A stretch of DNA of 64,000 nt. Source: Planctomycetota bacterium. Lineage in GTDB: Bacteria; Planctomycetota; B143-G9. Within the stretch, counting starts at the first letter, position 1, and each line of letters opens with the position of its first letter. The notes under the pieces were generated by a model that saw only the letters and a program-made list of their open reading frames with translations, had not been told where the DNA came from and did no database searches. Shown one piece after another: positions 2,900-59,699 of this stretch. The translations under genes and the position numbers were made by a program. The DNA is taken from positions 28,046-92,045 of the forward strand of contig JAXHMW010000001.1 in assembly GCA_034521065.1 (NCBI GenBank), in the 5' to 3' direction.

Positions 2900-4369
2900 A
2901 TGAAAACGACCTTCCCCGCCATTCTCCTTGTGCTGCTGTTCGCCCTGGCATGCTCCGCGTGCGCTGAAGCGCCCGAAGAGAAAGACTCGAAGCTCTCCGT
3001 CACTTCACTGTGCGTACTCATGGCGGACAACCTTGAGGAGTTCTGCGAGTCCGGCGGATTCGCGCTCATATCACCGGCGAACGACAATCTCTTCGTTGCG
3101 CGCTCGAAAGGCGCGCAGACCAAGCTTTTGCTGAACTCGAAGGACATCACACCGGACGGCTGCACCGGATTCATCTCCGCCGCCTTCGCCCCCGACAACA
3201 CGCTCGCTTTCGCATACTCGACCCACGAAGGCTGCTTCGTTTCCGTGAGAGAAAGACAACAGAAGTTCGGATCGTACCGTTCTGTCAGGGAGAACTCGCT
3301 GCTGTTCAGTCCGGACTCGAAGAGGCTCGCGTTCATAGCGGGTGTGCAACGCCCGCGCGAAGCCGTCGTGCTGGACGGAGAGAAGGGAGAGGGTTACACG
3401 GAGATATGCGAGTTCATCTTCTCGCGCGACTCGCGCAGGTTCGGCTTTATCGGGCGAAACGGCAACGAGTACGCGCTCGTTGTGAAAGGCAAGGTGAGCG
3501 ACCGCTACACGGCCTACCGTAACCTTCGCTTTTCCACCGCCCGGCGCGGATACGCGGTCATGGCCATGGACAAGGGCGAATGGTTCCCGCTGCTGGGTTC
3601 GCGCAGGGGCGCTGGTTGTTTCGGTGCTGCAAGCGAGTTCGTATTCGACTCTCGCGGTAAGCGCTGCGTTTTCGTTGCCGAGACCGAAGAGGGCAAGGTG
3701 CTGTTCGAAAACGGCAAGCCCACCAAGTGGACAGACGTACAGCGCCCGTTCTTCGGCCCACGAGACAAGCTGACCTTTGTGCAGACCAGAAAGGGCAGAC
3801 AGTTCCCCGTTGTGGACGGAGCGGCGCTCAAGAGCTACGACCGTGTGCGGTTGATGCTCTTCTCTCCGGACGGCAAGAGGTTTATCCACACCGCGTTCAT
3901 GGGGCAGATGGAAGTGATGATGGAGAACGGCTCGTTCGACGAGGAGTTCCATCACGTCATCGAACCTGTCTTTACGCCGGACGGCGGCCATCTCGCCTTC
4001 GCGGGCCAGTTCATGAAGGATGTGACTTTGGTGGTGGACAAGCTTAAACCTGCCATTTGCAAGGGCACCGACGCCTTTGCGGTCACGATTTCAGACGACG
4101 CGAAGCACAGCGCCCTCTTCGTGGTCAACGGCGAAAGGGTGAGCCTCGTTGTTGACGGGAAACAGCTTGCGGAGTACTATAAGTTCGACCCTTGGTGTTT
4201 CGGAGCCGGTTTCACCGCCTACCGGGCTGAACAGGCTGCGGCCTTTGCCCGTGGCGAAATTCCCGAAGCGGCGCAACGCATGTTCAGAATCAGCATCGAG
4301 GACGGTGGATTCAGGTATTTCGCGGTTCAGGACGGCAAGTTCGTTCGAGTGGAGGGCGAATTCAAATGA
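2900..4369 (+). CDS. Lipoprotein with TolB-like / beta-propeller 'SPDGKR(L)AF' repeats, function unknown
   Basis: Signal peptide MKTTFPAILLVLLFALACSAC with a lipobox-like Cys. Repeated FSPDGKRLAF, FSRDSRRFGF and FTPDGGHLAF motifs. A GGAGAG ribosome-binding site precedes the ATG at 2900. The ORF-finder start at 2780 is probably too far upstream. Confidence 0.6.
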   Translation: MKTTFPAILLVLLFALACSACAEAPEEKDSKLSVTSLCVLMADNLEEFCESGGFALISPANDNLFVARSKGAQTKLLLNSKDITPDGCTGFISAAFAPDNTLAFAYSTHEGCFVSVRERQQKFGSYRSVRENSLLFSPDSKRLAFIAGVQRPREAVVLDGEKGEGYTEICEFIFSRDSRRFGFIGRNGNEYALVVKGKVSDRYTAYRNLRFSTARRGYAVMAMDKGEWFPLLGSRRGAGCFGAASEFVFDSRGKRCVFVAETEEGKVLFENGKPTKWTDVQRPFFGPRDKLTFVQTRKGRQFPVVDGAALKSYDRVRLMLFSPDGKRFIHTAFMGQMEVMMENGSFDEEFHHVIEPVFTPDGGHLAFAGQFMKDVTLVVDKLKPAICKGTDAFAVTISDDAKHSALFVVNGERVSLVVDGKQLAEYYKFDPWCFGAGFTAYRAEQAAAFARGEIPEAAQRMFRISIEDGGFRYFAVQDGKFVRVEGEFK

Positions 4370-4863
4370 GTGACGGACCGTTGGTGTCGATTATCCTGGC
4401 GGTATCAGCGAACGGCGTAATCGGTCGGGAAGGCGGCCTTCCATGGTCTCTTCCGACAGACCTGCAACGATTCATGCAACTTACTCTCGGCTCGACTGTA
4501 ATCATGGGAAGGCTCACGGCGGAATCCATAAGGAATCCTCTTCGAGAGCGTACCAATATCGTGCTGACAAGCGGCCCGAAGCTCGGCAGGGGGTTCGAGA
4601 CCGCACATTCGCTCGACGAGGCACTTCGGATGTGCGAAAGCGGGAAAGAGGTCTTCGTCATCGGTGGCAGGCGGGTTTACGAGGAGGCCATGCCGCGGGC
4701 CGACAGGTTATATGTAACCCGCGTGATGGCACAGGTCGAAGGGGATGTCAGGTACATGCCGTCCGTGGACGGCAGTTGGCGAATAGTCAGGTCAGAAGGC
4801 CCGATTACGAGCAGCAAGGACGATCACCCGTACCTGTTCGAGATATACGAGCGAGTCAGATAG
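4366..4863 (+). CDS. folA: Dihydrofolate reductase
   Basis: Motifs ISIILAVSANGVIGREGGLPW, LTSG, VFVIGGRRVYEEAMP; 165 aa. The start overlaps the upstream stop (ATGA). Confidence 0.9.
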   Translation: MSDGPLVSIILAVSANGVIGREGGLPWSLPTDLQRFMQLTLGSTVIMGRLTAESIRNPLRERTNIVLTSGPKLGRGFETAHSLDEALRMCESGKEVFVIGGRRVYEEAMPRADRLYVTRVMAQVEGDVRYMPSVDGSWRIVRSEGPITSSKDDHPYLFEIYERVR

Positions 4864-5335: not shown

Positions 5336-7336
5336 TCACTCCTTCTGTTCTGCCTGTGAAGGCGGGGTTCTCAAAGTCCTCAGAAACAGGTATATCTTCA
5401 GGGCCTCTTGCTGTGAGAGGCCGAAGTCGTCCATATCGGTGTCAGGCTGGATGTCTCCCGCCCTTTTGAGCCACGAAACCATGAATTCCGGCGTGACCTT
5501 CACTCCGATGTTGGAAAGATCGGGTCCTGTGTAAGCGGCAATTCCCCTGCCGTACACCTTGTGGCAGCGCACGCAGAAGTTCTTCTGGAAAAGCTGTTCG
5601 CCTTCCCTCAGGGCCTCTCTTCCTTGTGGAATATCCTCCGTCAGCGCCACCGGCAGTTTACCTTTCAGCGTTGAAAGGTAAGCAGCGAGATCCGCTGTCT
5701 CGTGCGGTTGAAGCATGGGGTCGGGCATATCGCTGTGGTTGAGAACTTCGTACGGCGCGGACAGCCAATGCTCCAGCCAGCCCGTGCGAACCTTGTCGCC
5801 TGTGAGCGCGAGGTTGGGCCCCTGCAGGCGCGGGAACTTCTCCTTGCCCTCCTTGCGCGTAAGACCGGCCGGAACCGGAGCGACAGAATGACACTGGTAG
5901 CACTGCTTGTGAAAAAACAGTATCCGGCCCCTACTTTCGGCTTTGCGATAGGGCTCGCCGGAATCGAGAGCGCGAGATGGTTCGAAATCCCTCAACGACA
6001 TGAGAAATGCCACAATGGGTTCCGACTCGTCGCTTGCGAGCATAAAGTTCGGCATCGCTACCTCCCGCTCGACAATCTCTTCGAACGAGCGGACGTGAGA
6101 GAGGTAGTCCAGCAGAGTTTCGTGAGCTTCGACGCCATCCCTTCGCGGCATGTCTTTGAAAGGCAGGTCGAGAACCGGACGGGAAGCAAACCCCGCGAGC
6201 GACGGACCTATCTTGCGTTCCAGCGAGGAGCCGTCGGTGGTGTGGCATGCGAGACAGTAGTTGTCGTCGAACAGCTTGCGCCCTGCTACGGGGTCTCCAC
6301 CGGCTTTCATTCCCGCGTAAGGGTCGGACGAGCCTCCGGTGGAAGTGGTGAGATAAGCGACGAGTATTCGCTTTTGTTCCTCACCGAGGGAATAGACGGG
6401 CATCCGCGAAAAAGGAAGGATTTCGCGAGGGTCGGAAAACCACCAGTTGAGCCAGCTTCGGCGATAGCGGAAGCCTGCGCCGGTGAGTATGGGGCCTTCG
6501 TCGCCGCCCTCGGGAAACTGCGGGGTGACATGGCACCTGTCGCAGCCGAGTCTGTCGAACTCGTTCTGTCCCTCGGTCGCGTCACCGGGGCGGAGCAGTC
6601 CGTACGGGGGCGGCGTGCGAAACTCCTCGAGCGAGTCGAGATATGCTCCGAGGTCGTTCGCAGCTTCTTCGGAAAATCCGTAGTAGGGCATGGTGCGGGT
6701 GACGGTTACGAGGGGTTTCTCCTGTGTCAGCAGCGCGATGAGGTATTCGGCGCGCAGTTTCTGCACGAGCTTTATCAGGTCGATGCGCTCGGTGTGGCGG
6801 TAAAGCCGGGGAATGGAGTGACATTCTGCGCAGCCAAGTCGCCGCACAAGCGTCCTGCCGTAACCGGGGCCGGAAGAGGAAGCCTGTACGTACTCCTGCC
6901 TGTGACAGACCGTGCAGGAAGAACGGGCCCGCCAGAGCATGTCATTCAGGGCGGGCCGCAGTGCGCCTGTCACGCCGTGGGCCTGCTCATGGTCGAGAGA
7001 GCGTCCGTCGCCGCCGTGGCAGGACGTGCAGCCGTAGGCGAAGTACGGGTGTTGCCGGTGCGCATAGTTGGACGCAAGAACATCTTCGGGCAGGTGACAG
7101 GTGAGGCATCGGTCCACAATGCCATCCGAAGCGACGAATACCTGGCGCATCTGCGGTGAGGCGTCCGGGTTCAATTTGAAAAAGTGGCCGTGCCAGGAAG
7201 GCGATGATTCGAGTGCCAGCGTTACTGCCAGTGCGACAAGCAGCAGCACAGCGGCCACGGTCAAGGCGATAACCCATTGTGTCAGCGTCCGGCCGGTATC
7301 CTTCACATTCTTCCCTGGTCGAAATGAAGTCTGCAT
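5336..7336 (-). CDS. Multihaem c-type cytochrome (8 CxxCH motifs) with an N-terminal membrane anchor
   Basis: Eight haem-binding CxxCH motifs: CLTCH, CTSCH, CTVCH, CAECH, CDRCH, CLACH, CYQCH, CVRCH. N-terminal transmembrane helix WVIALTVAAVLLLVALAVTLAL. 666 aa, intact. Confidence 0.85.
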   Translation of the reverse strand: MQTSFRPGKNVKDTGRTLTQWVIALTVAAVLLLVALAVTLALESSPSWHGHFFKLNPDASPQMRQVFVASDGIVDRCLTCHLPEDVLASNYAHRQHPYFAYGCTSCHGGDGRSLDHEQAHGVTGALRPALNDMLWRARSSCTVCHRQEYVQASSSGPGYGRTLVRRLGCAECHSIPRLYRHTERIDLIKLVQKLRAEYLIALLTQEKPLVTVTRTMPYYGFSEEAANDLGAYLDSLEEFRTPPPYGLLRPGDATEGQNEFDRLGCDRCHVTPQFPEGGDEGPILTGAGFRYRRSWLNWWFSDPREILPFSRMPVYSLGEEQKRILVAYLTTSTGGSSDPYAGMKAGGDPVAGRKLFDDNYCLACHTTDGSSLERKIGPSLAGFASRPVLDLPFKDMPRRDGVEAHETLLDYLSHVRSFEEIVEREVAMPNFMLASDESEPIVAFLMSLRDFEPSRALDSGEPYRKAESRGRILFFHKQCYQCHSVAPVPAGLTRKEGKEKFPRLQGPNLALTGDKVRTGWLEHWLSAPYEVLNHSDMPDPMLQPHETADLAAYLSTLKGKLPVALTEDIPQGREALREGEQLFQKNFCVRCHKVYGRGIAAYTGPDLSNIGVKVTPEFMVSWLKRAGDIQPDTDMDDFGLSQQEALKIYLFLRTLRTPPSQAEQKE

Positions 7337-7450
7337 GTAACGGTACGCACCATTATAACGTAGTTGAGGAGCAAACGGTACGGAACAAATGTCATATTAT
7401 TGCTGAAATTTCGCGTTTTTGCGCTATAATTCCCCGTTAGCACGATTTGT

Positions 7451-7804
7451 GTGGGAGTGACACCTTTGACTGACGAACTTCACGAGTCGCTGTGTGAAAA
7501 GTGTGGCAGATGCTGCCATGCCAAGGTTCTGGTGGACGGGGTGGTCTATTTCACCCGAGGCCATTGTAGATTTCTTGATGCGGCATCGGGTCTCTGTTCA
7601 GTCTATGACAGGCGTTTTGAACTCAACAATGAGTGCATTCCCGTAGCCAGAGCCGTACAGCTCGGAGCACTTCCCGGGGATTGCCCCTATGTTCCAAACA
7701 GGCGCAATTACAGCGGCCCGAAGCCGTTTGAAGAGCTGGTCGCTTCGCTCGGCGAGGAATTTGCTGAAAAAGCTGCCCGTGAGGCGCTTGAAGGACATTG
7801 CTGA
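7451..7804 (+). CDS. YkgJ-family cysteine-cluster protein (CxxCxxCC putative Zn/Fe-chelating domain, UPF0153)
   Basis: CEKCGRCCH motif plus the downstream Cys pattern typical of the family. GTG start at 7451. Confidence 0.6.
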   Translation: MGVTPLTDELHESLCEKCGRCCHAKVLVDGVVYFTRGHCRFLDAASGLCSVYDRRFELNNECIPVARAVQLGALPGDCPYVPNRRNYSGPKPFEELVASLGEEFAEKAAREALEGHC

Positions 7805-8241
7805 ACGACCGATACCTAAACCATGAGCCGGGCAGGGAACGTAATATGGCAACTGATGACATTCTCACCAGGGCTGAGTGGACCGAGCGCGTTGTCGCCG
7901 TCGCGAACAACGTCATTGATGAGAACGAAGACCTATTTACGGAAAAAAAGGACAAGTCGTTCTTCGAGGACATGGTCCTCGACAGGGTCGAAGCCTACCT
8001 GAAAGGTTCGGCCGTACTTCACGCTGCACGCTATGAGTTCGTGAAGTACTGCGTTGGCGCAGAACATACCACAAGACCTGTGGAAGAAGAATGCAAGGGA
8101 CTGGAACGCTGTGCTGTACGGCGTTTCGTATCATTGCGCCTGTTTCGACGTTACAAAGATGGTTATGAAGATACTGTCGGACGAGGCTCCGAGACGCAAG
8201 AACCCCGTCTCACTGGACGAATGACGGAAAGGCCCCGATGA
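7798..8241 (+). CDS. Hypothetical protein (probable true start ATG at 7846)
   Basis: Intact ORF with no recognisable motif. It ends four nucleotides after the start of the next gene. Confidence 0.4.
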   Translation: MLNDRYLNHEPGRERNMATDDILTRAEWTERVVAVANNVIDENEDLFTEKKDKSFFEDMVLDRVEAYLKGSAVLHAARYEFVKYCVGAEHTTRPVEEECKGLERCAVRRFVSLRLFRRYKDGYEDTVGRGSETQEPRLTGRMTERPR

Positions 8242-11200
8242 AGACAATCGATGAGTTGGCGATCGAAAAAACGCTGAACGGTGAAGCGGAAGCCTTCGCC
8301 GACATCGTCATGCGTCACCGAATGGCGGTTATGCGCCTTTGTCTTTTTGCCTGCGGCGAATACGAAACCGCGAGCCGCATGCTCCGTCGCACTTTCCTCG
8401 CCTTCGCAAACCACATGGTCTCGCATCGCAATCAGGGCGACGTACACAACCTGCTCATAAACCACGCCGCACAGGTCATAAGCAGTTGGGAGAAGCGCGG
8501 CTCAAGACGTGTCGGTAAAATAGAAAATCTGAGAAACAACCTCGAACAGGCCTTCTACTTCCCTTCAGAAGAGCTTGAAAGGCTCAAGAACACCTCGATG
8601 GCTGAGTTGCAGAAGAGCTTTGTCAACGTCGCGGTGGCACTGGGCAAGTATCCCGTGCACCAGAAGCTCGTCATGGGCCTGAAGGCTTTCGAGGGTCGCT
8701 CGTACAACAACATCGCCAAGCTTTCCGGCATTGATCCGAAAAAGATACAGACCATAGTCGAGGACTTCCGCAAGTCCATTCTCGGCGGTTATAAGACAGA
8801 TGACGATGAAGAAGCCGAACTGGAGCAGATGCTTGGGCTTTTCGTTGACAACGAGCTTGCTCCCATCAAGGCCGCGCGTTTGCAGGAAGAGCTTAAGCAA
8901 AATGACCGTTTGCGCAAGCGCATGTCGGAGTTCATCCAGCTTCGCGACAGGCTGACGAGCGCGTTTGCGTACTTCGCCCCTCCCGACGACATCGTCGAGC
9001 AGATTATCAAGGGGATGCCCGACCCCAAGCGACTGCTCTCCGTCCCCCGCTTCGGTGAGATTGCCACGGCAATGGGCTTCGTCGAGCAGGAGGCCATCGA
9101 GGCAGCCCTGAAGGAGCAAAGGAAGCTCAAGGCCCGGGGGCACGATGAGCTTCTGGGTTCCATACTCGTTGAACGGGGCAGCATGGACAAAAAGACCGTT
9201 CAGCGTGTTCTGGAGGTGCAGGGAGAACAGGGCAAGCCTGAAACCCTTGCGGACTGCGAAATAGTGGAGCAGGTGGGCAAGGGCGGCATGGGTGTCGTGT
9301 ATCGCGCTCATCAGCAGAGCATGGGCAGAGATGTCGCAGTCAAGGTGCTGTATCCCAAGCTGGCGAAGGACGAGAAGTTCGTCGAGAGCTTCCTCACAGA
9401 GGGCAAAGCGGTTGCGCACCTTGCACACCCGAACGTGGTCACGGGTATTGATGTCGGAGAGCACCAGGGCTTCATCTACCTGATAATGGAGTTCGTGGAC
9501 GGCCCGACCCTGCGCGAATGGCTCGGGGAGCACGAGGTGATGGACGAGTCCACCGCCCTCGACATGGCCATCCAGGTCTCCGCCGCTCTCGACTACGCTT
9601 ACAAGAACAACTTCATTCACCGCGACATTAAGCCCGACAACATCATGCTCGACCGCAACGGCGTGGCGAAGGTCTGCGACCTCGGTCTCGCCATTAGTGG
9701 CGAACAGGACCTCTTCGACGAGGACGGCGTTGTGGGCACCCCGCACTACCTTTCACCGGAACAGGCCCGGGGAGAGCGCAATCTTGATACTCGCTCGGAT
9801 ATCTATTCCTTCGGCGCAACCCTCTACCACGTCTTGACCGGCTCGACACCCTATTCCGGCGAGGATTCGCGCGAGATCATGGAAAAACATGCTTTCAGCG
9901 ATATACAGCCTCCGAGCGAGCGCAATCCGGATATCTCAGAGGCGTTCGAGTCCATCATCATGAAGATGATGGCCCGTGACCGTGACCTGCGCTATCCCAC
10001 CCCCGGCGATTTGCAGCGCGACCTCGAACTGCTCAAGGCAGGCAAGCGCCCCGTGGCCTATCAGGAGAAGCTGATACTTGAAGGCAAGCTCGATCCCAAG
10101 ATGCTTTTCCATGCAGACCGCACTCCGCAGCTGGTAATCGGCATCGTGGCTTTCCTCGTAATAACCCTGACAGGCATGTACTTCCTGTTCCAGGAATCCA
10201 TCATGCCGCAACAAGAGACCACTTCCTCGTACACTCCGCCTCCCACTCCCACTCCGACGGTACTCAGAAGCGGCGAGTTCTTCGTGCCGTCAATCTCGCC
10301 CGAGCAGGCGAAGGCCGATTACGAGAAACTCGAACAGATGGCAGAGGCCTCAGAAGACCCCTATCAGCTCGCCATAGCATGCGGCACGTTCATTGAGAAG
10401 TATCCGGGAACCAAGTTCATTCAGAAGGTCCTGGAGTTACGCATAGAGGCGTTCAACGCTCACAACAAGCTGGTAGAGGCAGAAATCGAGAAACGCTTCA
10501 AGAAGGCCAAAGAATTGGTCACGCATGAAGAGTATGTCGCAGCACTGAATCACATGTACGGCCTGCCGGAACACATGCGAGCCTCTCCTGCATTCAATAA
10601 GGTAAAGGACAAGATAGACGAGATAAACATAGCCATCGAGGACGTTGTTTTCGAGGAAGTTGACGTTTCCCTCGAGCTTGCAGGTCAGGAAGAATTCACA
10701 GAGGCGACGGACAAACTGAAAGAGCTTATCAACAAGGTTCCACCCGAATACGTACAGCAGATCAGCAACACACTCGTCCGCATCGAGAAGGAAAAGTACT
10801 TCTATGTCATCAGCCTCGGCAAGAACGCGCTGACGAAGATTCTTTCGTATTTCATCGAGGGCGAGTTCGACCAAGCCGACAAGCTCGTGAAAAAGCTGAC
10901 TACCGACCCCGCTTTCGCCGAATTCGCGCCGATGATTGAACAGAGCAAGAATTTCTTCTCCTCGATTCGCTCTGTGATAGAACACGCGATGAAAAGAGCG
11001 AAGGAACTGGAGGGCGGTACGGTAATCCTTCGCCTCGATAACGGTTCAGAGGTTCAGTCCCGCATTCTGAAGGTGAATGACGATAGCACGCTGGATGTCA
11101 TATTTATGGCCGCGGGAGAGAAAAAGACCCTTTCCATTTCCGACCTGTCCTCTTATTGCATCGCGGATCTTGCAAGAAGTTCAATAAGTAACCTGCCTGC

Positions 11201-12569
11201 CGACAAGAAGGGAGAGCAGTACCTGTCGCTTGCAGTTTACGAGTTCCTGACAGGCCTCTTCGAGCTGGCGGACAAGGACATAGAACATGCCCGAAAGTTC
11301 AAAGCCGATCCCACCATTTACGGCATTCTTAAGAACAATTTCGGTGATGTGGTGAAGGAGCGATTCGCGTTGAAGACACTGCAGCGCCTGCGCACCGCCC
11401 GCAAGAACGAGGACTGGGAAGCCGTGGAGAGACTCGCCAAGGAGCTTTTGGGCAAGTTCTCTGCCACAAATGCCGTTTTGCCATATCTTGATACCATAAG
11501 GCTCGCAAGGTCGCAAGCCTCCCTCAATTTGACCGGAATCAAGCGGTTTTTCAACGCTCCCGTTTCCATGGACGCCAGGGGGCTGACGCAGTTCACCTAT
11601 GACCTTTCCAACAAGCACCAGATGAAGGATTTCGGTTACATGCCCGAAAAGTGGTCACTCGAAAACGGCAAGATTGTGCAAAGCGAGGACTTCGGCCTCG
11701 GCTACGGTCTGCATCATCCTGCCTTCTTCAAGGACCGATGCGAAGTGGAGTTCACCTACTCCAACGAAAAGTCCAACTCGCTTTTCGTGTACATGTGCGG
11801 GGTGTGGATCGGCCTCAACGCCCATAACTCCACCGCAGACGCTCTGAACGAGCTGCCGCGTGACAAGACCTACAAGGCGTTTTACGGCAACGACATCGAG
11901 TTCGGAATGGTTGCAGGCGATACCTACCGCATGCGCTACGTGGTCCGTGACGGAAAGGTTTCCGTGTTCGCGAACGACAAGCTCGTTTTCGAGAAGCACG
12001 TTACTACGAAAGCCTCAGGCGTTGAGATCCGCGATCTCGGTTTCGCTCAGATCTCCGAACTCGTAATCCGTGGCAAGATTGACGAGCAGTGGCTCGCAAC
12101 AATTGCAGAACTGAACGCCAGGATAGAGGCGGGAGAACTTACCCGCGGCCTCACCCGCATAGCCTACGGAACGCTGAATTTCTCGCGCAGACTCGGAGAC
12201 GAGGTAGTAAGCGAAGTTAACGATCATTTCGCGGTCGGGCCTTCCAAGCGTCTGCGCAAGCCGACTTGGTCCGCGAAGTACAAGGGATTCCTCATGGTTC
12301 CCGAACGCGGCGAGTACAAGCTTTATATCCGAACTACCGCCCGGACCTCTGTTCGTGTGAACGGAAAACGCGTTCACGACAACACGAGCACAGGCGGCGT
12401 GCCGGACAGCTTCCTCACCATCACCTTGCAGCTCGAAGCAGGGCTTAACGAGTTCGAGTTCTCCGTCGCCAACGACGACATTCCGGATCAGACCATCTGG
12501 CTCGGTTTCGGCTTTGAGACCGACTCCAAGGGCTCGCTCCCGCCAATCATGCTCTACACCGAACCTTAG
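8238..12569 (+). CDS. Giant multidomain signalling protein: N-terminal ECF-type sigma factor domain (sigma2 + sigma4 HTH), a T2SE_N-like helical domain (GspE N-terminal-like), a Ser/Thr protein kinase, one transmembrane helix, and a large extracytoplasmic region ending in a PA14-like domain
   Basis: The N-terminus LAIEKTLNGEAEAFADIVMRHRMAVMRLC...VHNLLINHAAQVI matches the ECF sigma2 pattern. HQKLVMGLKAFEGRSYNNIAKLSGIDPKKIQTIVEDFRKSI matches the sigma4 helix-turn-helix. Kinase motifs are GKGGMGVVYRA, VAVK, HRDIKPDNIML, DLGLA and GTPHYLSPEQ. The transmembrane helix is LVIGIVAFLVITLTGMYFLF. The C-terminal GFLMVPERGEYKLYIRTTARTSVRVNGKRVHDN...LQLEAGLNEFEFSV is PA14-like. The ORF is 1443 aa with no frameshift. 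Confidence 0.8.
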   Translation: MKTIDELAIEKTLNGEAEAFADIVMRHRMAVMRLCLFACGEYETASRMLRRTFLAFANHMVSHRNQGDVHNLLINHAAQVISSWEKRGSRRVGKIENLRNNLEQAFYFPSEELERLKNTSMAELQKSFVNVAVALGKYPVHQKLVMGLKAFEGRSYNNIAKLSGIDPKKIQTIVEDFRKSILGGYKTDDDEEAELEQMLGLFVDNELAPIKAARLQEELKQNDRLRKRMSEFIQLRDRLTSAFAYFAPPDDIVEQIIKGMPDPKRLLSVPRFGEIATAMGFVEQEAIEAALKEQRKLKARGHDELLGSILVERGSMDKKTVQRVLEVQGEQGKPETLADCEIVEQVGKGGMGVVYRAHQQSMGRDVAVKVLYPKLAKDEKFVESFLTEGKAVAHLAHPNVVTGIDVGEHQGFIYLIMEFVDGPTLREWLGEHEVMDESTALDMAIQVSAALDYAYKNNFIHRDIKPDNIMLDRNGVAKVCDLGLAISGEQDLFDEDGVVGTPHYLSPEQARGERNLDTRSDIYSFGATLYHVLTGSTPYSGEDSREIMEKHAFSDIQPPSERNPDISEAFESIIMKMMARDRDLRYPTPGDLQRDLELLKAGKRPVAYQEKLILEGKLDPKMLFHADRTPQLVIGIVAFLVITLTGMYFLFQESIMPQQETTSSYTPPPTPTPTVLRSGEFFVPSISPEQAKADYEKLEQMAEASEDPYQLAIACGTFIEKYPGTKFIQKVLELRIEAFNAHNKLVEAEIEKRFKKAKELVTHEEYVAALNHMYGLPEHMRASPAFNKVKDKIDEINIAIEDVVFEEVDVSLELAGQEEFTEATDKLKELINKVPPEYVQQISNTLVRIEKEKYFYVISLGKNALTKILSYFIEGEFDQADKLVKKLTTDPAFAEFAPMIEQSKNFFSSIRSVIEHAMKRAKELEGGTVILRLDNGSEVQSRILKVNDDSTLDVIFMAAGEKKTLSISDLSSYCIADLARSSISNLPADKKGEQYLSLAVYEFLTGLFELADKDIEHARKFKADPTIYGILKNNFGDVVKERFALKTLQRLRTARKNEDWEAVERLAKELLGKFSATNAVLPYLDTIRLARSQASLNLTGIKRFFNAPVSMDARGLTQFTYDLSNKHQMKDFGYMPEKWSLENGKIVQSEDFGLGYGLHHPAFFKDRCEVEFTYSNEKSNSLFVYMCGVWIGLNAHNSTADALNELPRDKTYKAFYGNDIEFGMVAGDTYRMRYVVRDGKVSVFANDKLVFEKHVTTKASGVEIRDLGFAQISELVIRGKIDEQWLATIAELNARIEAGELTRGLTRIAYGTLNFSRRLGDEVVSEVNDHFAVGPSKRLRKPTWSAKYKGFLMVPERGEYKLYIRTTARTSVRVNGKRVHDNTSTGGVPDSFLTITLQLEAGLNEFEFSVANDDIPDQTIWLGFGFETDSKGSLPPIMLYTEP

Positions 12570-12577
12570 GGGCGGGT

Positions 12578-12653
12578 TGCATAATACAGTCTTACTGCAA
12601 ACGGCTGCGGCTTTACCTCGCTCGTTTTCGTACGAAATTATTTTTTCGAGATA
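12578..12653 (-). repeat. Intergenic repeat element, copy 3 (compact, inverted orientation), flanked by a 16-bp direct duplication ccttaggggcgggttg (12562-12577 and 12655-12670)
   Basis: Its reverse complement reads ctcgaaaaaataatttcgtacgaaaacgagcgaggtaaagccgcagccgtttgcagtaagactgtattatg. The flanking 16-mer is duplicated exactly and includes the stop codon of the 1443-aa gene. Confidence 0.55.
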
Positions 12654-12795
12654 CCCTTAGGGGCGGGTTGAATGCGGTTCGCGGCGGGTTCTCAAAACTC
12701 AAGAAATTCTGAACGGGGTTCTCCCTTCTCCGAACGGCCTGCGCGGTTCCCTTTTGCGTGGTACAATATCTTAAAAATCATCAGGGAGGATAACT

Positions 12796-13275
12796 TTGGC
12801 AGCGAACATGCCTGAAAAGGGCGCAAAGGCCCCCGATTTCACACTTAAAGACCAGAACGGCGATGAGCACTCGCTCGCCGACTTCGCGGGTAAATGGCTC
12901 GTTCTCTACTTCTACCCCAAAGACAACACCCCCGGCTGTACTACCGAGGCGAAGGACTTCAACGATGCCATGGCCGAAATAGAACGGATGGGTGCGAAGG
13001 TCGTCGGCGTAAGCCCCGACTCCGTGAAGTCGCACTCGAACTTCTGTTCGAAATACGACCTGGACCTGATACTGCTCTCCGACCCGGACAAGCAGGTTCT
13101 CAGCGACTACGGTGCATGGCAGAAGAAAAAGATGTACGGTCGGGAGTACATGGGCGTTCAGCGTAGTACCGTGTTGATCGACCCCGAAGGCAGGGTCGCA
13201 GGGGTCTGGCCCAAGGTTCGCGTCAAGGGACATGTCGAAGAGGTCAGCAAAACCCTCAGTGAACTGGCCGGTTGA
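12796..13275 (+). CDS. bcp: Thiol peroxidase / peroxiredoxin Bcp
   Basis: APDFTLKDQNGDEHSLADFAGKWLVLYFYPKDNTPGCTTEA peroxidatic Cys motif. TTG start with a GGAGG ribosome-binding site 5 nt upstream. Confidence 0.88.
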   Translation: MAANMPEKGAKAPDFTLKDQNGDEHSLADFAGKWLVLYFYPKDNTPGCTTEAKDFNDAMAEIERMGAKVVGVSPDSVKSHSNFCSKYDLDLILLSDPDKQVLSDYGAWQKKKMYGREYMGVQRSTVLIDPEGRVAGVWPKVRVKGHVEEVSKTLSELAG

Positions 13276-13399
13276 TAACCTGGCGGTCGGGCACGAGCCT
13301 CACCGCTCTGAACCGAAACCTACCTGTCCGGTTTGTCAGGGAATGGGAAATCCGGGCAGTTTGACGTAAACAGTCTCTTCTCAGGGGGGAGACGTGAAG

Positions 13400-16931: not shown

Positions 16932-18197
16932 ATGGAACTTCAGGAAGAACTGAGCGATTTTGAGCGACAACTCGCACGGCTCGCGGTTAAGAACAAATTC
17001 GCCTCGGAGCAGGATATCAACCGCTGCGTGGCGATGTTCACTATCCGCCGCGAGGACGACGAGGAGTTGTCTCTCAGTCGCTTCATGGTGGATGAAGGGA
17101 TAGTTGACGAAAAGCAGGCGCGAGCATTGAAGCTGGCCGCCGAAAGGCACGTAAAGGATGCACGTAACGAACAGCACCGTATCGGTGGCTACCAGATTAT
17201 CGGCAAGCTCGGAGAAGGCGGGCTGGGCGTGGTTTATCGCTGTCTCCAGCTCTCGATGGGCCGCGAGGTCGCGCTCAAACTCCTTCACCCGCGGTGGAAT
17301 TTCGACGAGGAGTTCAAGCGCCGATTCCTGCTCGAAGCTCGGCTGCTCGGAAAGCTCAGCCACGAGAACCTCGTACAGGTTTACGACGTCGGCAAGGACA
17401 AGGGGCGATTCTATTTCTCCATGGAACTCGTGCAGGGCAGGTCCATAGAGGAAATTATTGACGAGGAAGGCCCCTTCAGCTCCGACCTCGCCATTGACAT
17501 CGTATATCAGGTCGCAAAGGCCATCGAGTACCTGTGGCAGTACAAGATCGTCCACCGCGACATTAAGCCCGGCAACGTCATGGTGGACGCGAAAGGCAGG
17601 GCCAAGCTCATGGACTTCGGTTTCGTCAAGCCGCGAATCGAGACCATAGAGTCCGAACCGGGTATGGTCCTCGGAACTCCGGACTATATCTCACCCGAAC
17701 AGGCCCAGGGCAAAACTGAAATTGACATCCGAAGCGACTTCTACTCGCTCGGGGCTTCGCTGTACCATATGCTGACCGGCTCGCCCCCGTTCTCGGGTTC
17801 GGGCTCCTCCGTTATGCGACAGCACCTTGTCAAGGGCATTCCGGACCCCTCCAAGGTGAACCCGGACGTGCCGGAGGAACTTTGCGCCCTCGTAAAAAAG
17901 CTCACCGAAAAAGAACCCGCAGACCGACTCCAGGCTCCCGAAGAACTGCTCAACGAGATTTCTCTCATACGAGCCCGGCGTAAGCTGGAGGTCGAAAAGC
18001 TGCCCAGGGGCGGTTCCACGATTGTGCGGGCGCTCAAGACATCACAGAAAAAGGACAAGGATCAGACGGAGACCATCGGCAAGCTTCAGACCGAGGTCAA
18101 GCGTCTGCGGTCGCTCATGTTCATGATTCTCATAGGCGGAGCGATTGCACTGGTCGTGCTCGCCGTACTCGTCGCAATTATGCTGCTGAAAAACTGA
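16932..18197 (+). CDS. Ser/Thr protein kinase with an N-terminal T2SE_N-like helical domain and a C-terminal transmembrane anchor
   Basis: GEGGLGVVYRC, VALK, HRDIKPGNVMV, DFGF, GTPDYISPEQ. C-terminal helix LMFMILIGGAIALVVLAVLVAIMLL. Confidence 0.88.
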   Translation: MELQEELSDFERQLARLAVKNKFASEQDINRCVAMFTIRREDDEELSLSRFMVDEGIVDEKQARALKLAAERHVKDARNEQHRIGGYQIIGKLGEGGLGVVYRCLQLSMGREVALKLLHPRWNFDEEFKRRFLLEARLLGKLSHENLVQVYDVGKDKGRFYFSMELVQGRSIEEIIDEEGPFSSDLAIDIVYQVAKAIEYLWQYKIVHRDIKPGNVMVDAKGRAKLMDFGFVKPRIETIESEPGMVLGTPDYISPEQAQGKTEIDIRSDFYSLGASLYHMLTGSPPFSGSGSSVMRQHLVKGIPDPSKVNPDVPEELCALVKKLTEKEPADRLQAPEELLNEISLIRARRKLEVEKLPRGGSTIVRALKTSQKKDKDQTETIGKLQTEVKRLRSLMFMILIGGAIALVVLAVLVAIMLLKN

Positions 18198-19593: not shown

Positions 19594-19604
19594 GGGTGCC
19601 TCGA

Positions 19605-19780
19605 AAAAACTGCTTTCGCACGAAAACGAGCGAGGTCAACTCAGGCGAGGCAGCCAAGTTAAATTATGTTGATGGTGGCTGGCGGCCGTTATCGCAGGTA
19701 TCCCTCGTTCTCTGACCGTTCAACGACAATCAGGTAAGCATGGCAAACCCGCGGACGTTTGCAGTAAAACTGTATTTAAG
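19605..19780 (+). repeat. Intergenic repeat element, copy 2 (longest; between the UDPGP gene and the RCC1 gene)
   Basis: cctcgaaaaaactgctttcgcacgaaaacgagcgaggtcaactcaggcgagg ... taagcatggcaaacccgcggacgtttgcagtaaaactgtattt. Confidence 0.55.
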
Positions 19781-19851
19781 CGGTGCCCAGTAGTGCGTAT
19801 GCCTTAAAACTTTGTAAACTCTGTCAACGACAATGTAACGGAGGGAACAGA

Positions 19852-22800
19852 ATGCGAAAGTCGGTCTTGATTGTTTCGGTGATTGCGGTTGTTGTGGTTC
19901 TCGCGCTTTCGCTGAACCTCGGCGGTTTAAGGGACATGCTTTCCGGCGGCGCGGGCGAAACGGTTATAGAGCGTTCGCGCACAAGCGGAACGCGCAGCTA
20001 CGAGACAGACGCGACGGCGCAGCAAAGCAGGATTTCGGCAGGGCGGAAACACACTCTTTGCCTGGATAAATACGGCTCGCTCTGGGCGTGGGGCGATAAC
20101 GGTTGGGGCCAGATCGGCAAGGGAGAGGAAGACAGCAAAGAACTTCTGCCTGTTCCCATACGTAAACCAGAAGATATGGGGAATGTCCTCGCCATCTCCG
20201 CCGGAAGTTTTCACAACGTTGTCCTTTGTGAAGATGGCTCGCTCTGGGCGTGGGGCCGGAACATGTACGGCCAGATCGGAAACGGTAAGGGCGGAGAGCA
20301 GGAAAGCAAAGAGCCTCTGCCTGTTCCCGTGCGTAAACCGGAAGGCATGGGAAATGTCGTCGCGATCTCTGCCGGAGATGAGCACAGCCTTGCCCTTTGT
20401 GAAGACGGCTTCTCTGGGCGTGGGGCTCGAACGAATTCGGCCAGATCGGGAACGGTAAGGGCGGAGAAAAGGACAGCAAAGTGCTTTTGCCTGTCCGCGT
20501 GAGTAAACCCGAAGGCATGGGGAATGTCGTCTCCATCTCCGCCGGAGGTTCTCACAATCTTGCCCTTTGTGAAGACGGCTCGCTCTGGGCGTGGGGCTGG
20601 AACGAGTACGGCCAGATCGGCAACGGCAAGGGCGGAGAGACGGGTAGCAAAGAGCTTCTGCCTGTCCGCGTGCGTGAGCCGGTACGCATGGGGAATGTCC
20701 TCGCGATCTCCGCCGGAGGTTGGCACAGCTTTGCCCTCTGTGAAGACGGCTCGCTCTGGGCGTGGGGGTACAACAGGTATGGCCAGATCGGCAACGGTAA
20801 GGGCGGAAAGTGGGACAGCGGAGGAAAGCTTCTGCCTGTTCCCGTGCGTAAACCTGAAGGCATGGGTAATGTCGTCTCTATCTCCGCCGGATTTTGGCAC
20901 AACCTAGCCCTTTGTGAAGGCGGCTCGCTCTGGGCGTGGGGCGATAACGAGTACGGCCAGATCGGCAACGGCAAGGGCGGAGAGCAGGACAGCGAAGAAC
21001 TTCTGCCTGCCTTCGTGTTGCCACACGCGGGCATGGGGAATGTAGTCGCCATATCCGCCGGAGGTTTGCACAGCTTTGCCCTTTGTGAAGACGGCTCGCT
21101 CTGGGCGTGGGGCGATAACGAGTACGACCAGATCGGCAACGGCAAGGGCGGTTGGACGGACAGCAAAGAGCTTCTGCCTGTTCCCGTGCGTAAACACGAA
21201 GGCATGGGGAATGTCCTCACAATCTCCGCCGGAAGTGATCACAACCTCGCCCTTTGCGAAGACGGCTCGCTCTGGGCGTGGGGGGGCAACTCGTCCGGCC
21301 AGGTCGGCAACGGCAAGGGCGGAGAGGAAGACAGCAAAGAGCTCTCTGCCTGTGCGCGTGAGTAAACCGGAAGGCATGGGGAATGTCGTCGCCATCTCCG
21401 CCGGAGGTTGGCACAACCTCGCCCTTTGTGAAGACGGCTCGCTCTGGGCGTGGGGGAACAACTGGTTCGGCCAGGTCGGCAACGGCAAGGGCGGAGAAAA
21501 GGACAGCAAAGAACTTCTGCCTGTCCGAGTGCGTAAACCGGAAGGCATGGGATGTCGTAGCCATCTCCCGGAGGTTTGCACAGCCTTGCCCTTTGCGAAG
21601 ACGGCTCGCTCTGGGCGTGGGGCTGGAACAAGGTCGGCCAGATCGGCAACGGCAAGGGCGGAGAGCAGGACAGCAAAGAGCTTCTGCCTGTTCGCGTGTG
21701 GCAACACGAAGGCTTGGGGGATATTGTCGCCATCTCCGCCGGATTTAAGTACAACCTTGCCCTTTGTGAAGACGGCTCGCTCTGGACGTGGGGTGAAAAC
21801 TATTTCGGCCAGATCGGCAACGGTAAGGGCGAAGAGGTGTACAGCAAAGAGCCTCTGCCTGTCCGCGTGAGTAAACCGGAAGGTATGGGGAATGTCCTCG
21901 CCATCTCCACTGGATGGTTTCACAACCTTGCCCTTTGTGAAGACGGCTCGCTCTGGGCGTGGGGGAACAACTCGTCCGGCCAGATCGGCAACGGCAAGGG
22001 CGGAGAGGAAGACAGCAAAGAGCTTCTGCCTGTCCGCGTGCGTAAACCGGAAGGCATGGGAGATGTGCTCGCCATATCCGCCGGAGCTGCTCACAACCTT
22101 GCCCTTTGTGAAGACGGCTCGCTCTGGGCGTGGGGAACAACTCGTCCGGCCAGATCGGCAACGCAAAGGGCGGAGAGGTGTCAGCAGAGAACTTCTGCCT
22201 GTCCGTGTGCGTAAACCGAAAGGTATGGGGAATATTGTCACCATATCCGCCGGAGCTTTGCACAACCTTGCCCTTTGCGAAGACGGCTCGCTCTGGGCGT
22301 GGGGTTATAACGCTTCCGGCCAGATCGGCAACGGCAAGGGCGGAGAGGAAGACAGCGAAGAGCTTCTGCCCGTGCGCGTGAGTAAACCGTAAGGTATGGG
22401 TGATGTCCTCCCCATCTCCGCCGGAGCTTTGCACAACCTTGCCCTTTGCGAAGACGGCTCGCTCTGGGACTTGGGGGGGACAGAGTACGGCCAGATCGGG
22501 GAACGGTAAGAAACGCAGGCGAAGAGCTTCTGCCTGTTCCCGTGCGTAAACCCGAAGATATGGGGAATGTCGCCGCGACTTCCGCCGGAGGTGTTCACAA
22601 CCTTGCCCTTTGTGAAGACGGCTCGCTCTGGGCGTGGGGCTGGAACGATTACGGCCAGATCGGGAACGGTAAGGGTGGAAAGGAGTACAGCAAAGAGCCT
22701 CTGCCTGTCCGAGTGAGTAAACCAGAAGATATGGGGAATGTCCTTGCCATCTCCGCCGGAGGTACTCACAACCTTGCCCTTTGTGAAGACGGCTCGCTCT

Positions 22801-23078
22801 GGGCGTGGGGCGAGAACGATGATGGCCAGATCGGCAACGGTAAGGGTGGAGAAAAGGACAGCAAAGAACTTCTGCCTGTCCGCGTATGGAAACCGCAAGG
22901 CATGGGGAATGTCGTCGCGTTCTCCGCCGGAGGTGCTCACAACCTTGCCCTTTGTGAAGACGGCTCGCTCTGGGCGTGGGGCTGGAACAAGTACGGCCAG
23001 ATCGGGAACGGTAAGGGTGGAAAAAAAGGCAGCAAAGAGCTTTTGCCTGTCCGCGTGCGTAAACCTGAAGGTATGTAA
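19852..23078 (+). pseudogene. Membrane-anchored RCC1-repeat (beta-propeller) protein encoded by ~19 tandem ~170-nt repeat units. The reading frame is broken many times by indels and at least one in-frame stop, so it is either a pseudogene or a repeat-collapse/indel-error hotspot
   Basis: N-terminal anchor MRKSVLIVSVIAVVVVLALSL with a GGAGGG ribosome-binding site. The unit ...GSLWAWGxNxYGQIGNGKGGExDSKELLPVPVRKPEGMGNVVAISAGxxHNLALCEDG... recurs every ~170 nt from ~20060 to ~23080. Frame breaks occur near 20400, 21350, 21550, 22130, 22385 (an in-frame TAA from a G-to-T change in the otherwise conserved aaaccgGaagg), 22450-22510 and 23070. Confidence 0.7.
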
Positions 23079-23080
23079 GA
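20050..23080. repeat. Tandem array of ~19 direct repeats (~170 bp, RCC1-coding units, roughly 80-95% identical)
   Basis: The string tgtgaagacggctcgctctgggcgtgggg recurs at ~20228, 20399, 20569, 20739, 20909, 21075, 21247, 21426, 21592, 21766, 21937, 22108, 22277, 22448, 22612, 22783 and 22954. Confidence 0.9.
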
Positions 23081-23225
23081 TGTTGTAGCCATCTCCGCCG
23101 GAAAATCGCAACACGAATCAGTGCAGCCAGTGCGCCCCGCGAGCCTTTACGAACGTGCTTGTCTCGAAAGAAGTTACGAACAGCAGAGATATAGCAGGCA
23201 TACGGGAAAACCAGCGATAGCGGCC

Positions 23226-43991: not shown

Positions 43992-44754
43992 CTACGCAGA
44001 CACTTCCAGACCGTCGTAAGCGAGCCGGACGTTTTCCGGCAGAAGCTTCGACACCCTTTCGTGATGAATATCGTGACCGATGTGCGTAAGGTATGCCTGT
44101 CCCGGTCCAATGCGCTCTATTAATTCGCAGGCTTCCACTACGTTCAGGTGCGCCGGGTGACTGCGATTGTACTTTAGAGAATTCAGAACGAGAACATCCA
44201 CTCCCTTCAGCAGTTCAATGCTCGTCGCCGGTATCTCCTTGGCGTCGGTCACGTAGGCGAGGTTCCCGAACCTGAAGCCGCGTACCGACACGTTCGATGA
44301 AGTACCGGAAGGGGAATGACCGGGATGCCCTCCACCTCGAAAGGCTCGTCATCGAAGGTATGGACGTGAAAATCGGGGCTGCTGCTTACCCCGTTCGAGG
44401 TGCTGAACGCGAAGAAGAATATCTTGCGAACGTTGTACAGTGATTGGCCTGACATGTACAGGCAGGCCGGTTCGGCCATACTGACGTTCAGCGCGGTTAT
44501 GTCGTTGATGCCGAGAATATGGTCCGCGTGAGCGTGCGTCACAAGTATCGCGTCAAGGTGTGTAACCGAGTTTGCCAGCATCTGTTGTCGGAAGTCGGGG
44601 CCGATATCAATGCATAACTTTTTGCCTTCAATCTCCAGTAGCGCACTCGGGCGTGTTCTCCTGTTCCTCGGGTCGTTCGAAGTGCAGGTAGGGCAACTGC
44701 AGCCAATTACAGGAACGCCCAGGGATGTTCCGGTGCCCAGGAAGGTAAGCTTCA
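43992..44754 (-). CDS. MBL-fold metallo-hydrolase (PhnP/GloB-like), with an apparent frameshift near 44290
   Basis: MKLTFLGTGTSLGVP...LVTHAHADHILG motif. C-terminal ...AYLTHIGHDI in a second frame. Confidence 0.7.
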
Positions 44755-44762
44755 TTCTTCGT

Positions 44763-45559
44763 CGCCGCCCTCGATACCGTACACCGCGCGGGGCACGGAG
44801 ATATCCACGATATGTATCCGGCCGCACATATCGGGTCCGGTCCGTTTCCAAAAAGCCCTTCTTGGCGGCGGCAAATGTAATCGTGTGGTCTGCACGAACG
44901 CACTTGCCGGGGGTTTCTCCCGTGTTCACGTCGAGCCCTGAAGGCAGGTCCACCGAGAACACGAGGCTGCCGCTGTCATTTATCATCTCTATGAGCTTGT
45001 CGTAGGGTTCGCGCGGGGCGCCCTGAATGCCGGAGCCCAGCAGCGCGTCCACCACTATGTCCGACTCCTCGAGGAAGTGCGGGATGTTTTCCAACTCCAA
45101 CTCGGTGCCGACCTCTACCACGCGGATGCCCATCTTCTGGGCGATTGCAAGGTTTACATCGGCTTCGTCAACATCCTCTTCCGGAGCTTTCAGGCCGTAC
45201 TTCTCCGCTATTTCCTTGCGCTTGAGACTACCGTAAGTCTCGATATAGCTGCCCGGTTTGCTCGGTGATGAACCCGTATTCTTCGTCCCTATGCCCATCA
45301 CGTTGACGTTGACGCCGTGGTTGTGAAGATGACGTGCTATAACGTAGCCATCTCCGCCGTTATGGCCCTTACCGGCAAGAATGGTTACCGAACGAGGTTC
45401 GTCGAATTCTTCGAGGGCCGACAGAATTATGTCCGCACTGCGCAGTCCGGCGTTCTCCATCAGTACTATGCCGGGGATGCCGTACCTGTCCATTGCAACG
45501 CTGTCAATCTGCCGGGCGCGTTCCCTTGTGAACGGTTCAACTTTCTCGAGATGCCTCAT
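44763..45559 (-). CDS. NAD(P)H-hydrate epimerase (YjeF N-terminal domain / Nnr), with an apparent frameshift near 44810-44835
   Basis: LMENAGLRSADII...ILAGKGHNGGDGYVIARHL. The true C-terminus GRIHIVDISVPRAVYGIEGGDEE is in another frame and ends in ATGA overlapping the next gene. Confidence 0.7.
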
Positions 45560-59680: not shown

Positions 59681-59699
59681 CCGCCGAAAACTACCGGCG

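Follow-up and report, generated by a model that had tools for sequence, protein, structure and literature searches.

A divergent ECF-type sigma domain and a receptor kinase with its own anti-sigma domain in one open reading frame of a Planctomycetota genome: a possible cis-held switch

INTRODUCTION

Sigma factors of the extracytoplasmic function (ECF) type are usually described as controlled by either an anti-sigma factor or a Ser/Thr kinase. What, then, should be made of a locus at which a sigma-like domain and a Hanks-type kinase share one open reading frame (ORF)? The locus lies in a 64,000-nt stretch of a Planctomycetota metagenome-assembled genome (MAG; GenBank assembly GCA_034521065.1, contig JAXHMW010000001.1, positions 28,046 to 92,045 of the forward strand). 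This whole stretch is referred to below as the window, has a G+C content of ~57%, and supplies all coordinates given here. An initial annotation of the window described a single chain of sigma domain, kinase, membrane anchor, and extracellular PA14-like domain. Our own answer, which is a tentative one, is that a divergent ECF-type sigma domain and a receptor kinase with its own class-I anti-sigma domain (ASD) are joined in one chain here and that the sigma domain would be held in cis and switched by Thr phosphorylation.

RESULTS

A single ORF with a kinase domain and one membrane helix

The ORF runs without interruption from 8238 to 12569 on the (+) strand, starts with ATG, and comprises 1443 codons for a protein of 1443 amino acids (aa), so it does encode a single polypeptide, as had been annotated. 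An identical protein, from a contig of 348 kb, is present in NCBI nr (MDZ7814456.1), where it is annotated "MAG: protein kinase [Planctomycetota bacterium]." The annotated kinase proved complete as well: the domain at aa 341–606 (9258–10055, [+] strand) gives a Pfam Pkinase match over aa 341–586 with an E-value of 1.9e-53 and keeps all catalytic motifs, namely, the glycine-rich loop (GKGGMG, 347), the VAIK lysine (VAVK, 366), HRD (HRDIKPDN, 461), DFG (DLG, 481), and APE (SPE, 506). By hydrophobicity, there is one transmembrane helix (aa 632–651; 10131–10190, [+] strand), which is followed by a Pro/Thr-rich linker. Three Lys/Arg residues flank this helix on its N-terminal side and none on its C-terminal side, which places the N-terminus inside the cell. 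The N-terminal 631 residues, with the sigma and kinase domains, are therefore predicted to be cytoplasmic and the last ~790 residues to be outside, in agreement with the topology proposed at the outset.

Just before the kinase, at aa ~268–333 (9039–9236, [+] strand), lies a four-helix domain that resembles MshEN/T2SSE_N. It carries a pair of 24-residue motifs, RFGEIA… (271) and LLGSIL… (305), of which the reference pattern is RLGxxLLxxGLLxxxxLxxxLxxQ, and may bind cyclic di-GMP (c-di-GMP).

The N-terminus is a divergent ECF-type sigma fold

Residues 1–184 (8238–8789, [+] strand) form, by profile and by AlphaFold2 (AF2) model, an ECF-type sigma domain, with sigma2 helices at aa 4–86 and sigma4 helices at aa 121–182. 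Curated models are of limited help with this region: a Pfam search of the N-terminus with Sigma70_r2 gave no match, and its scores stayed under the curated cut-offs for Sigma70_r4_2 (12.4 bits versus 25.7) and TIGR02937 (28.6 bits versus 42.9). A two-sequence profile run in an exhaustive HMMER search of 1.84 billion representatives, by comparison, matched approximately 100 ECF sigma factors of ~190 aa across aa 5–181 (E-values of 7e-11 to 1e-5), several of which contain canonical Sigma70_r2/r4_2 domains, and a six-sequence family profile searched against the PDB matched AlgU (E-value of 7e-9), sigmaE, and SigW. The annotated sigma2/sigma4 assignment thus stands at the level of profile and structure and fails at the curated thresholds; the N-terminus is a genuine ECF-type fold with only the sigma2 and sigma4 domains.

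The AF2 model of aa 1–340, computed from a 75-sequence alignment (predicted local distance difference test [pLDDT] of 88, predicted template modeling score [pTM] of 0.76), fits the CnrH/CnrY and RpoE/NepR complexes across ~146–150 residues, whereas sigma factors bound to RNA polymerase (RNAP) superpose on it across one domain only. This difference points to a closed arrangement of sigma2 and sigma4, as in an anti-sigma-bound state. The sigma-like domains of PhyR are also among the structural matches of the N-terminal model.

An alignment to 64 ECF sigma factors, together with the family alignment (relatives are described below), showed that the acidic DAED motif of region 2.2 reads T-A-S-R in the window protein. 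Its first Asp position is taken by Thr44 (codon 8367–8369, [+] strand), which is invariant in all six family sigma sequences compared, with the motif appearing as TASR, TAAN, TARN, TAAV, or TASN within the family. By analogy with kinase-regulated ECF sigma factors, Thr44 is a candidate phospho-acceptor. Furthermore, the sigma domain of the window protein is 44–53% identical to the unfused sigma proteins of its relatives, which are 48–59% identical to one another, and this similar divergence of fused and unfused forms suggests that the domain is still under constraint.

An anti-sigma domain lies between sigma4 and the MshEN-like domain

Directly after sigma4, ahead of the MshEN-like domain, we found a class-I ASD (aa ~190–259; 8805–9014, [+] strand) with AF2-predicted helices at 190–203, 209–221, 223–244, and 252–259. 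In the window protein, its similarity to zf-HC2 is slight (E-value of 0.32), while P0006, a full-length homologue, reaches 33.1 bits in its aligned region, above the gathering score (22.2). The family profile also reached the anti-sigma factors DdvA (E-value of 0.039) and RsiW (E-value of 0.52). The zinc ligands of this domain (pattern C...H-x3-C-x2-C) are intact in P0006 (C6...H-K-D-C-P-A-C; HKDCPAC) and in lineage L010 (HLKECPDC). They are lost from the window protein, which has no Cys or His in aa 186–230, and they are also missing from the unfused L001, L005, and P0007. The initial annotation, which was right about the single ORF and the domains it listed in its sigma-kinase-sensor fusion, had missed the ASD; as judged from these profile matches, the chain is a sigma/anti-sigma/kinase protein and not a bare sigma-kinase fusion. 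With the ASD carried in the same chain, no separate anti-sigma partner need be sought.

A helical ectodomain ends in two putative beta-sandwiches

The ectodomain is homologous between lineages (27–32% identity). Its first part, aa ~690–1105 (10305–11552, [+] strand), is helical, with 27–30% identity kept in the relatives. The low-confidence AF2 model of the ectodomain (pLDDT of 61) contains two beta-sandwiches. The first of these (aa ~1109–1281; 11562–12080, [+] strand) appears to be of the concanavalin-A-like/DUF1080-like type, as Foldseek with this low-confidence model returned 3h3l, 4hxc, 8v31, and CBM66 at TMt values of 0.4–0.5. The second (aa ~1317–1425; 12186–12512, [+] strand) corresponds to the PA14-like domain of the initial annotation. 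Here, the family profile matched the PA14 protein 6qdi with an E-value of 5.9e-5 and the PA14 sensor of the anti-sigma factor RsgI3 with an E-value of 0.037, and the same low-confidence model matches the RsgI3 PA14 domain. In Pfam, PA14 has a gathering score of 24, and neither the window protein (20–21.8 bits) nor P0006 (22.9 bits) reaches it, which leaves the domain putatively PA14-like. Word-index searches with the ectodomain alone and with a four-sequence ectodomain alignment gave no match.

Relatives encode the two halves as separate, adjoining genes

We delineated the family by the exhaustive HMMER search together with pattern scans, context look-ups, and a metagenome scan. The locus forms the central part of a rare module of four genes that occurs in seven lineages, i.e., the window and six others. 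The window's MAG and the L003 genome are the lineages that carry a taxon label, both Planctomycetota, and the other five are metagenome contigs or a lone protein. Beyond the window protein, the exhaustive search returned two sigma-only proteins of ~185 aa and four proteins that start at the anti-sigma segment, one of them being full length (P0006, 1261 aa). A word-index search with aa 1–335 returned P0001 only. A first scan of genome contigs for the family gave no match, and a second, over a collection of GTDB species representatives that excludes the window's MAG, returned only the L003 genome and an unrelated MshEN match in Desulfuromonadaceae. Exact look-ups of window proteins (the 1443-aa ORF, the second kinase, and the UDPGP gene) yielded no further assembly.

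In the relatives, the sigma protein (184–187 aa) and the anti-sigma-MshEN-kinase-sensor protein (~1261 aa) are encoded by separate, adjoining genes. The junction between them could be read in five relative lineages, the sixth (P0007) being a protein fragment that begins at the kinase start Met. L001 and L009 (one contig each) have TAG followed directly by ATG, in frame; L003 (three assemblies) and L010 (a single contig) have a TGATG overlap; and L005 (four independent assemblies) has TAA-g-ATG. The fused architecture, which the initial annotation had suggested seeking in related genomes, is thus absent from them: all five readable lineages keep two translationally coupled genes.

Two of the relatives' records are themselves irregular. 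On the L001 contig, two genes are frameshifted (3640–3700 and 1789–2101), namely, that of the kinase, after GRD, and the first of the operon; as a result, the 189-aa "protein" P0004 is a truncated call. P0005 (269 aa) matches the L009 kinase over ~200 residues and then continues into unrelated low-complexity sequence; its ENA contig is probably chimeric or frameshifted.

The fusion junction

The family alignment places the fusion junction at TAT AAG ACA (Tyr185-Lys186-Thr187; 8790–8798, [+] strand): the sigma stop of the relatives falls on Tyr185/Lys186, and the start Met of their kinase falls on Lys186/Thr187. No linker residues intervene, so the window protein is a direct concatenation of both of the relatives' proteins. 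The assembled junction DNA reads TATAAGACAGATGAC, and TAT AAG is two substitutions away from the in-frame TAG ATG of L001, the closest sigma relative. Codon usage in frame 0 scores 8.9–9.5 bits per 36 nt through the junction, and Leu195, three residues before Met198, keeps a hydrophobic position conserved in all relatives.

An out-of-frame ATG ACG ATG (frame 1, after a TAA) was considered as a kinase start and rejected, since it yields a peptide without homology and a lower codon-usage score, and since its triplets are forced by the Asp-Asp-Asp-Glu codons.

The upstream genes and the promoter-like site

The sigma/kinase pair follows two smaller genes in a conserved operon. The first (7451–7804, [+] strand) encodes a 117-aa CxxCGRCC protein, a homologue of the relatives' 120-aa first gene; both the motif and the homology hold in L001, L003, and L009, and a Pfam search of this gene gave no match. 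The second (7846–8223, [+] strand) was identified as a homologue of the relatives' 127-aa gene by three-frame translation against L003 g127; in the window it is frameshifted near 8040–8050, and its real stop, TGA at 8221–8223, lies 14 nt 5′ of the sigma ATG. This frameshift accounts for the listed ORF 7798–8241, which has a 4-nt overlap with the sigma ATG. A Bcp peroxiredoxin gene lies 3′ of the pair in the window and in L010.

Upstream of the operon, CTGAAA-16-TATAAT (7403–7430, [+] strand) is the sole sigma70-type match in 7300–13300, and it overlaps the motif GCGTTTTT-N5-TATAAT. The form CGTTTTT-N5-TAnnAT recurs upstream of the operon in four lineages (window, ~7410–7432; L003, ~4650–4670; L009, ~690–710; L010, ~1025–1045), whose G+C contents span <56% to 66%. 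A shared ECF-type -35/-10 dyad was sought upstream of the operon at five loci, and none was found.

Repeat element and other genes in the window

As initially annotated, the ORF is followed by a 16-bp duplication and a repeat element. Two direct copies of CCTTAGGGGCGGGTTG (12564–12579 and 12655–12670, [+] strand; 0.02 matches expected by chance), the first of which contains the stop codon of the ORF, flank a short copy (75 bp) of an intergenic element that is repeated in the window. Two longer copies of ~190 bp are located at ~19600–19790 and ~1725–1890, both on the (−) strand. The element has a shared 5′ end, ATACAGTyTTACTGCAAACG..., and a shared 3′ end, CCTCGCTCGTTTTCGTACGAAA..TTTTTCGAGrTACCCyTA, with the palindrome TTTCGTACGAAA, and looks like a miniature inverted-repeat transposable element or a repetitive extragenic palindromic element.

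Several other genes of the window were noted. A gene for an RCC1-repeat (beta-propeller) protein (19780–23100, [+] strand) is split over at least four frames, and every piece still has a strong RCC1 score, a pattern suggestive of indel errors in the consensus or of misassembled repeats. In an efflux operon (58342–62900, [+] strand), the resistance-nodulation-division (RND) transporter gene (ACR_tran) is broken into several ORFs, and an HlyD-type gene overlaps the RND start by ~160 nt; an apparent combination of OEP and HlyD in one ORF was not counted as an artifactual fusion, as the overlapping matches resemble coiled-coil cross-matching. An ORF at 44249–45559 ([−] strand) joins YjeF_N to a truncated metallo-beta-lactamase domain and may be a read-through or frameshift product. 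A second Hanks kinase, which looks soluble (421 aa; 16932–18197, [+] strand), lies 4 kb downstream, and a 666-aa multihaem cytochrome c gene (5336–7336, [−] strand) stands upstream of the operon in divergent orientation.

DISCUSSION

Weighing the readings

A fused, phosphorylation-switched sigma factor has to stand on two legs, the reality of the fusion and the activity of the sigma domain, and there is evidence that counts against each. As for the fusion, it is known from one MAG only, i.e., from one of the seven lineages, and genes with frameshifts abound in the window, one of them being the operon gene that lies ~750 nt upstream. The initial annotation stressed that the ORF has no frameshift, unlike much of the window; the ORF is indeed intact, and the same broken neighbors make a stop-codon artifact conceivable. 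The organism might accordingly have two genes, with one or two indels in an error-prone MAG consensus having taken the sigma stop out of frame, an explanation that we consider unlikely. The RCC1-repeat gene in at least four frames, the RND transporter in pieces, and the frameshifted second operon gene all fit it, as broken pieces that still score strongly for one domain look like consensus errors. It is also in keeping with a TAA in frame +2 exactly at the codon where L003, L005, L009, and L010 end their sigma proteins (FR plus seven residues): if one base were missing from a GG or TT here, putting it back as one more G or T in GGCGGTTATAA would give a sigma protein of 185 aa that ends in ...FRKSILGGL*. 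A single indel, however, would leave the kinase without a start until Met198 and would cost it 11–12 N-terminal residues common to all six relatives, including half of anti-sigma helix 1 (predicted helix 190–203, pLDDT of about 90), and a start at the homologous place would require two errors within ~40 nt. The would-be spacer, moreover, has coding-like codon usage (9.4 bits in frame 0 versus 2.5 in frame 1) and keeps the Leu195 position, and the Tyr-Lys and Asp-Asp codons by themselves bring about the TAA and ATG that are out of frame, a stop of this kind having a chance of ~5–10% at that position. Taken together, we hold the fusion to be probably real in the DNA. A real fusion could still be a non-adaptive lesion of recent origin, within an operon that this lineage is losing, as the frameshift in the second operon gene, if real, would mean a module already damaged, and as the zinc ligands of the ASD have been lost. 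This we judge very improbable: the 4.3-kb ORF is intact amid a frameshift-rich window, the kinase retains all of its catalytic motifs, the sigma and ASD/MshEN regions have diverged about as much as in the unfused lineages, and the zinc ligands are missing from unfused L001, L005, and P0007 too.

With respect to the sigma domain, family-wide degeneration at three sites makes genuine sigma activity doubtful: the Q-E of region 2.2 is K/R-R (R-R in the window protein), region 2.3 has no melting Trp, and the usual Arg residues are missing from the recognition helix of sigma4.2. In addition, the upstream CGTTTTT-N5-TAnnAT resembles a -10 element of the sigma70 type combined with a fixed T-tract and not an autoregulated ECF promoter; it is difficult to see how a sigma domain in covalent linkage with a membrane protein of 1250 aa could enter a holoenzyme without being cleaved, and a cleavage signal was not identified; and the closed arrangement of aa 1–340 is a model-level prediction in which the contacts between ASD and sigma are only putative. 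The degenerate sites would suit a pseudo-sigma, i.e., a sigma fold that is no longer an RNAP subunit and serves instead, much as PhyR does, as partner or substrate of the kinase's ASD, the sigma/anti-sigma interaction gating kinase activity or localization. The initial annotation had named both such a docking role and activation by phosphorylation, and both of its readings stand. We regard this as a doubtful but serious alternative, in which the fusion would be harmless or even helpful, since the parts would always act as a 1:1 complex. Besides the changes at Q-E, the replacement of DAED by T-A-x-x, of WLxRIAxN by LLINHAAQ-type sequences in regions 2.3/2.4, and of GTVKSRLxRAR by xEVxxxxxxFR in region 4.2 agree with it, as do the missing Sigma70_r2 match, the scores below the curated ECF cut-offs, the PhyR sigma-like domains among the structural matches, and the non-ECF-like motif upstream of the operon. 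The stop/start overlap in the relatives likewise implies stoichiometric co-production, and if the domain never leaves, it is less surprising that its fusion with a large membrane protein would be viable. Yet the change of DAED to a conserved Thr beside a cognate Hanks kinase is the very signature of genuine kinase-activated ECF sigma factors. ECF promoter specificities are, furthermore, very diverse, so that divergent regions 2.4 and 4.2 are no proof of lost function, and the strong conservation of region 2 (MRLCxFxCG..DTA..VKRxFLAFAN) suggests a constrained interface, possibly with RNAP.

How a cis-held sigma domain might be switched

If the domain is indeed a sigma factor held in cis, the following sequence of events can be envisaged. 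At rest, sigma2 and sigma4 would clamp the adjacent anti-sigma helices of the same chain, and the ASD would keep the sigma domain closed. A cell-surface glycan bound by the lectin-like ectodomain, possibly together with c-di-GMP at the MshEN-like domain, would then activate the kinase, which would phosphorylate Thr44 in region 2.2. The phosphate would supply the missing negative charge, loosen the grip of the ASD, and permit binding to the RNAP core. In the fused form, output might come about by proteolytic release, for which IutY and ECF52-type proteins offer a precedent, or by transcription with a sigma domain that stays tethered to the membrane.

Across the family, the kinase would itself be the anti-sigma factor, to judge from the position of the ASD within its chain. 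A more speculative and rather unlikely extension is that the sigma-fold partner is not (or not only) a transcription factor and is instead a phosphorylation-controlled regulatory subunit of the kinase, sigma and anti-sigma parts forming an intramolecular switch. If that were true, the module would embody a previously undescribed signaling logic, a Hanks receptor kinase bearing its own ASD, and the natural fusion would reveal an obligate membrane complex that may combine external glycan signals with internal c-di-GMP.

Of these results, the architecture shared by the family is the better founded and the more interesting, and the single-chain fusion is more striking and less secure. The family joins both modes of control on one receptor protein, beside a sigma that lacks the acidic core-binding patch, and could show in what way sequestration is combined with phospho-activation. 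If it is real, the fused form would link a lectin-like sensor outside the cell to a sigma domain within a single natural polypeptide and would be a compact object for testing whether such sigma factors need to be released and, maybe, a template for design. More generally, a coupled gene pair can become a multidomain protein through the loss of a single stop codon, and calls of this kind in error-prone MAGs need read-level confirmation.

Comparison with known systems

In a literature search of incomplete coverage, neither a Hanks kinase with an ASD nor a fusion of sigma and kinase was found described. One of the closest known arrangements is that of ECF43 (EcfP/PknT of Vibrio parahaemolyticus and EcfK/PknS of Xanthomonas citri), of the planctomycetal ECF59–62, and of ECF217, in which an ECF-type sigma factor is likewise encoded beside a transmembrane Hanks kinase. 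In kinase-regulated ECF sigma factors, DAED is replaced by uncharged residues (STTA in EcfP), and phosphorylation of Thr/Ser restores the charge needed for binding to the beta-prime clamp (PMC8103513, PMC8999054); PknS directly phosphorylates EcfK (PMC13147305). The family described here shares with the ECF43-like systems the uncharged residues with a conserved Thr (TASR in the window protein) and the cognate Hanks kinase, which adjoins the sigma gene in the relatives and is fused to it in the window. Kinase-linked ECF groups typically lack anti-sigma factors (PMC7826278) and have a separate kinase, whereas the kinase here bears a class-I ASD and, in the window, is covalently joined to the sigma domain; regions 2.4 and 4.2 are, moreover, far more divergent here, with scores that fall below the curated ECF thresholds.

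If the fusion is real, it shares with IutY of Pseudomonas putida (ECF243) and with the actinobacterial ECF48/52/53 (e.g., SCO4117, which has a carbohydrate-binding outer domain and a zinc-binding anti-sigma [ZAS]-type segment) the succession of sigma, anti-sigma, membrane helix, and outer domain in one chain. Those proteins have neither kinase nor MshEN domain, while ~370 residues of signaling domains separate ASD and membrane here, and the zinc ligands are missing. They also form conserved groups thought to be activated by regulated proteolysis, for which IutY is the precedent and which is expected for ECF48/52/53, in contrast to the one-off fusion described here, which the relatives do not share. 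The locus resembles a combination of kinase-activated ECF sigma factors and sigma/anti-sigma hybrids and departs from each of them in one or more defining features. RsgI3 of Clostridium thermocellum (PDB 6qe7), which both the family profile and the model match, is likewise a membrane anti-sigma factor with an extracellular PA14 sensor, though RsgI proteins belong with the SigI family, have a different anti-sigma fold, carry no kinase, and are not fused to their sigma factor.

The PhyR-NepR-EcfG system similarly uses a sigma-like fold as the phosphorylation-controlled partner of an anti-sigma element, but PhyR does so through a receiver domain and His-Asp phosphotransfer, with NepR as a small separate protein, where a Hanks kinase is present here. 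Within the same phylum, finally, planctomycete ECF sigma factors are known to gain C-terminal extensions by capture of downstream genes (PMC7671368), and the nearest matches outside the family (P0070, P0137, and P0148) are proteins of this kind. Their sigma genes, too, read into the downstream gene; they combine canonical Sigma70_r2/r4_2 domains with WD40 or tetratricopeptide repeat (TPR) extensions, whereas the extension of the window protein is an anti-sigma-kinase receptor.

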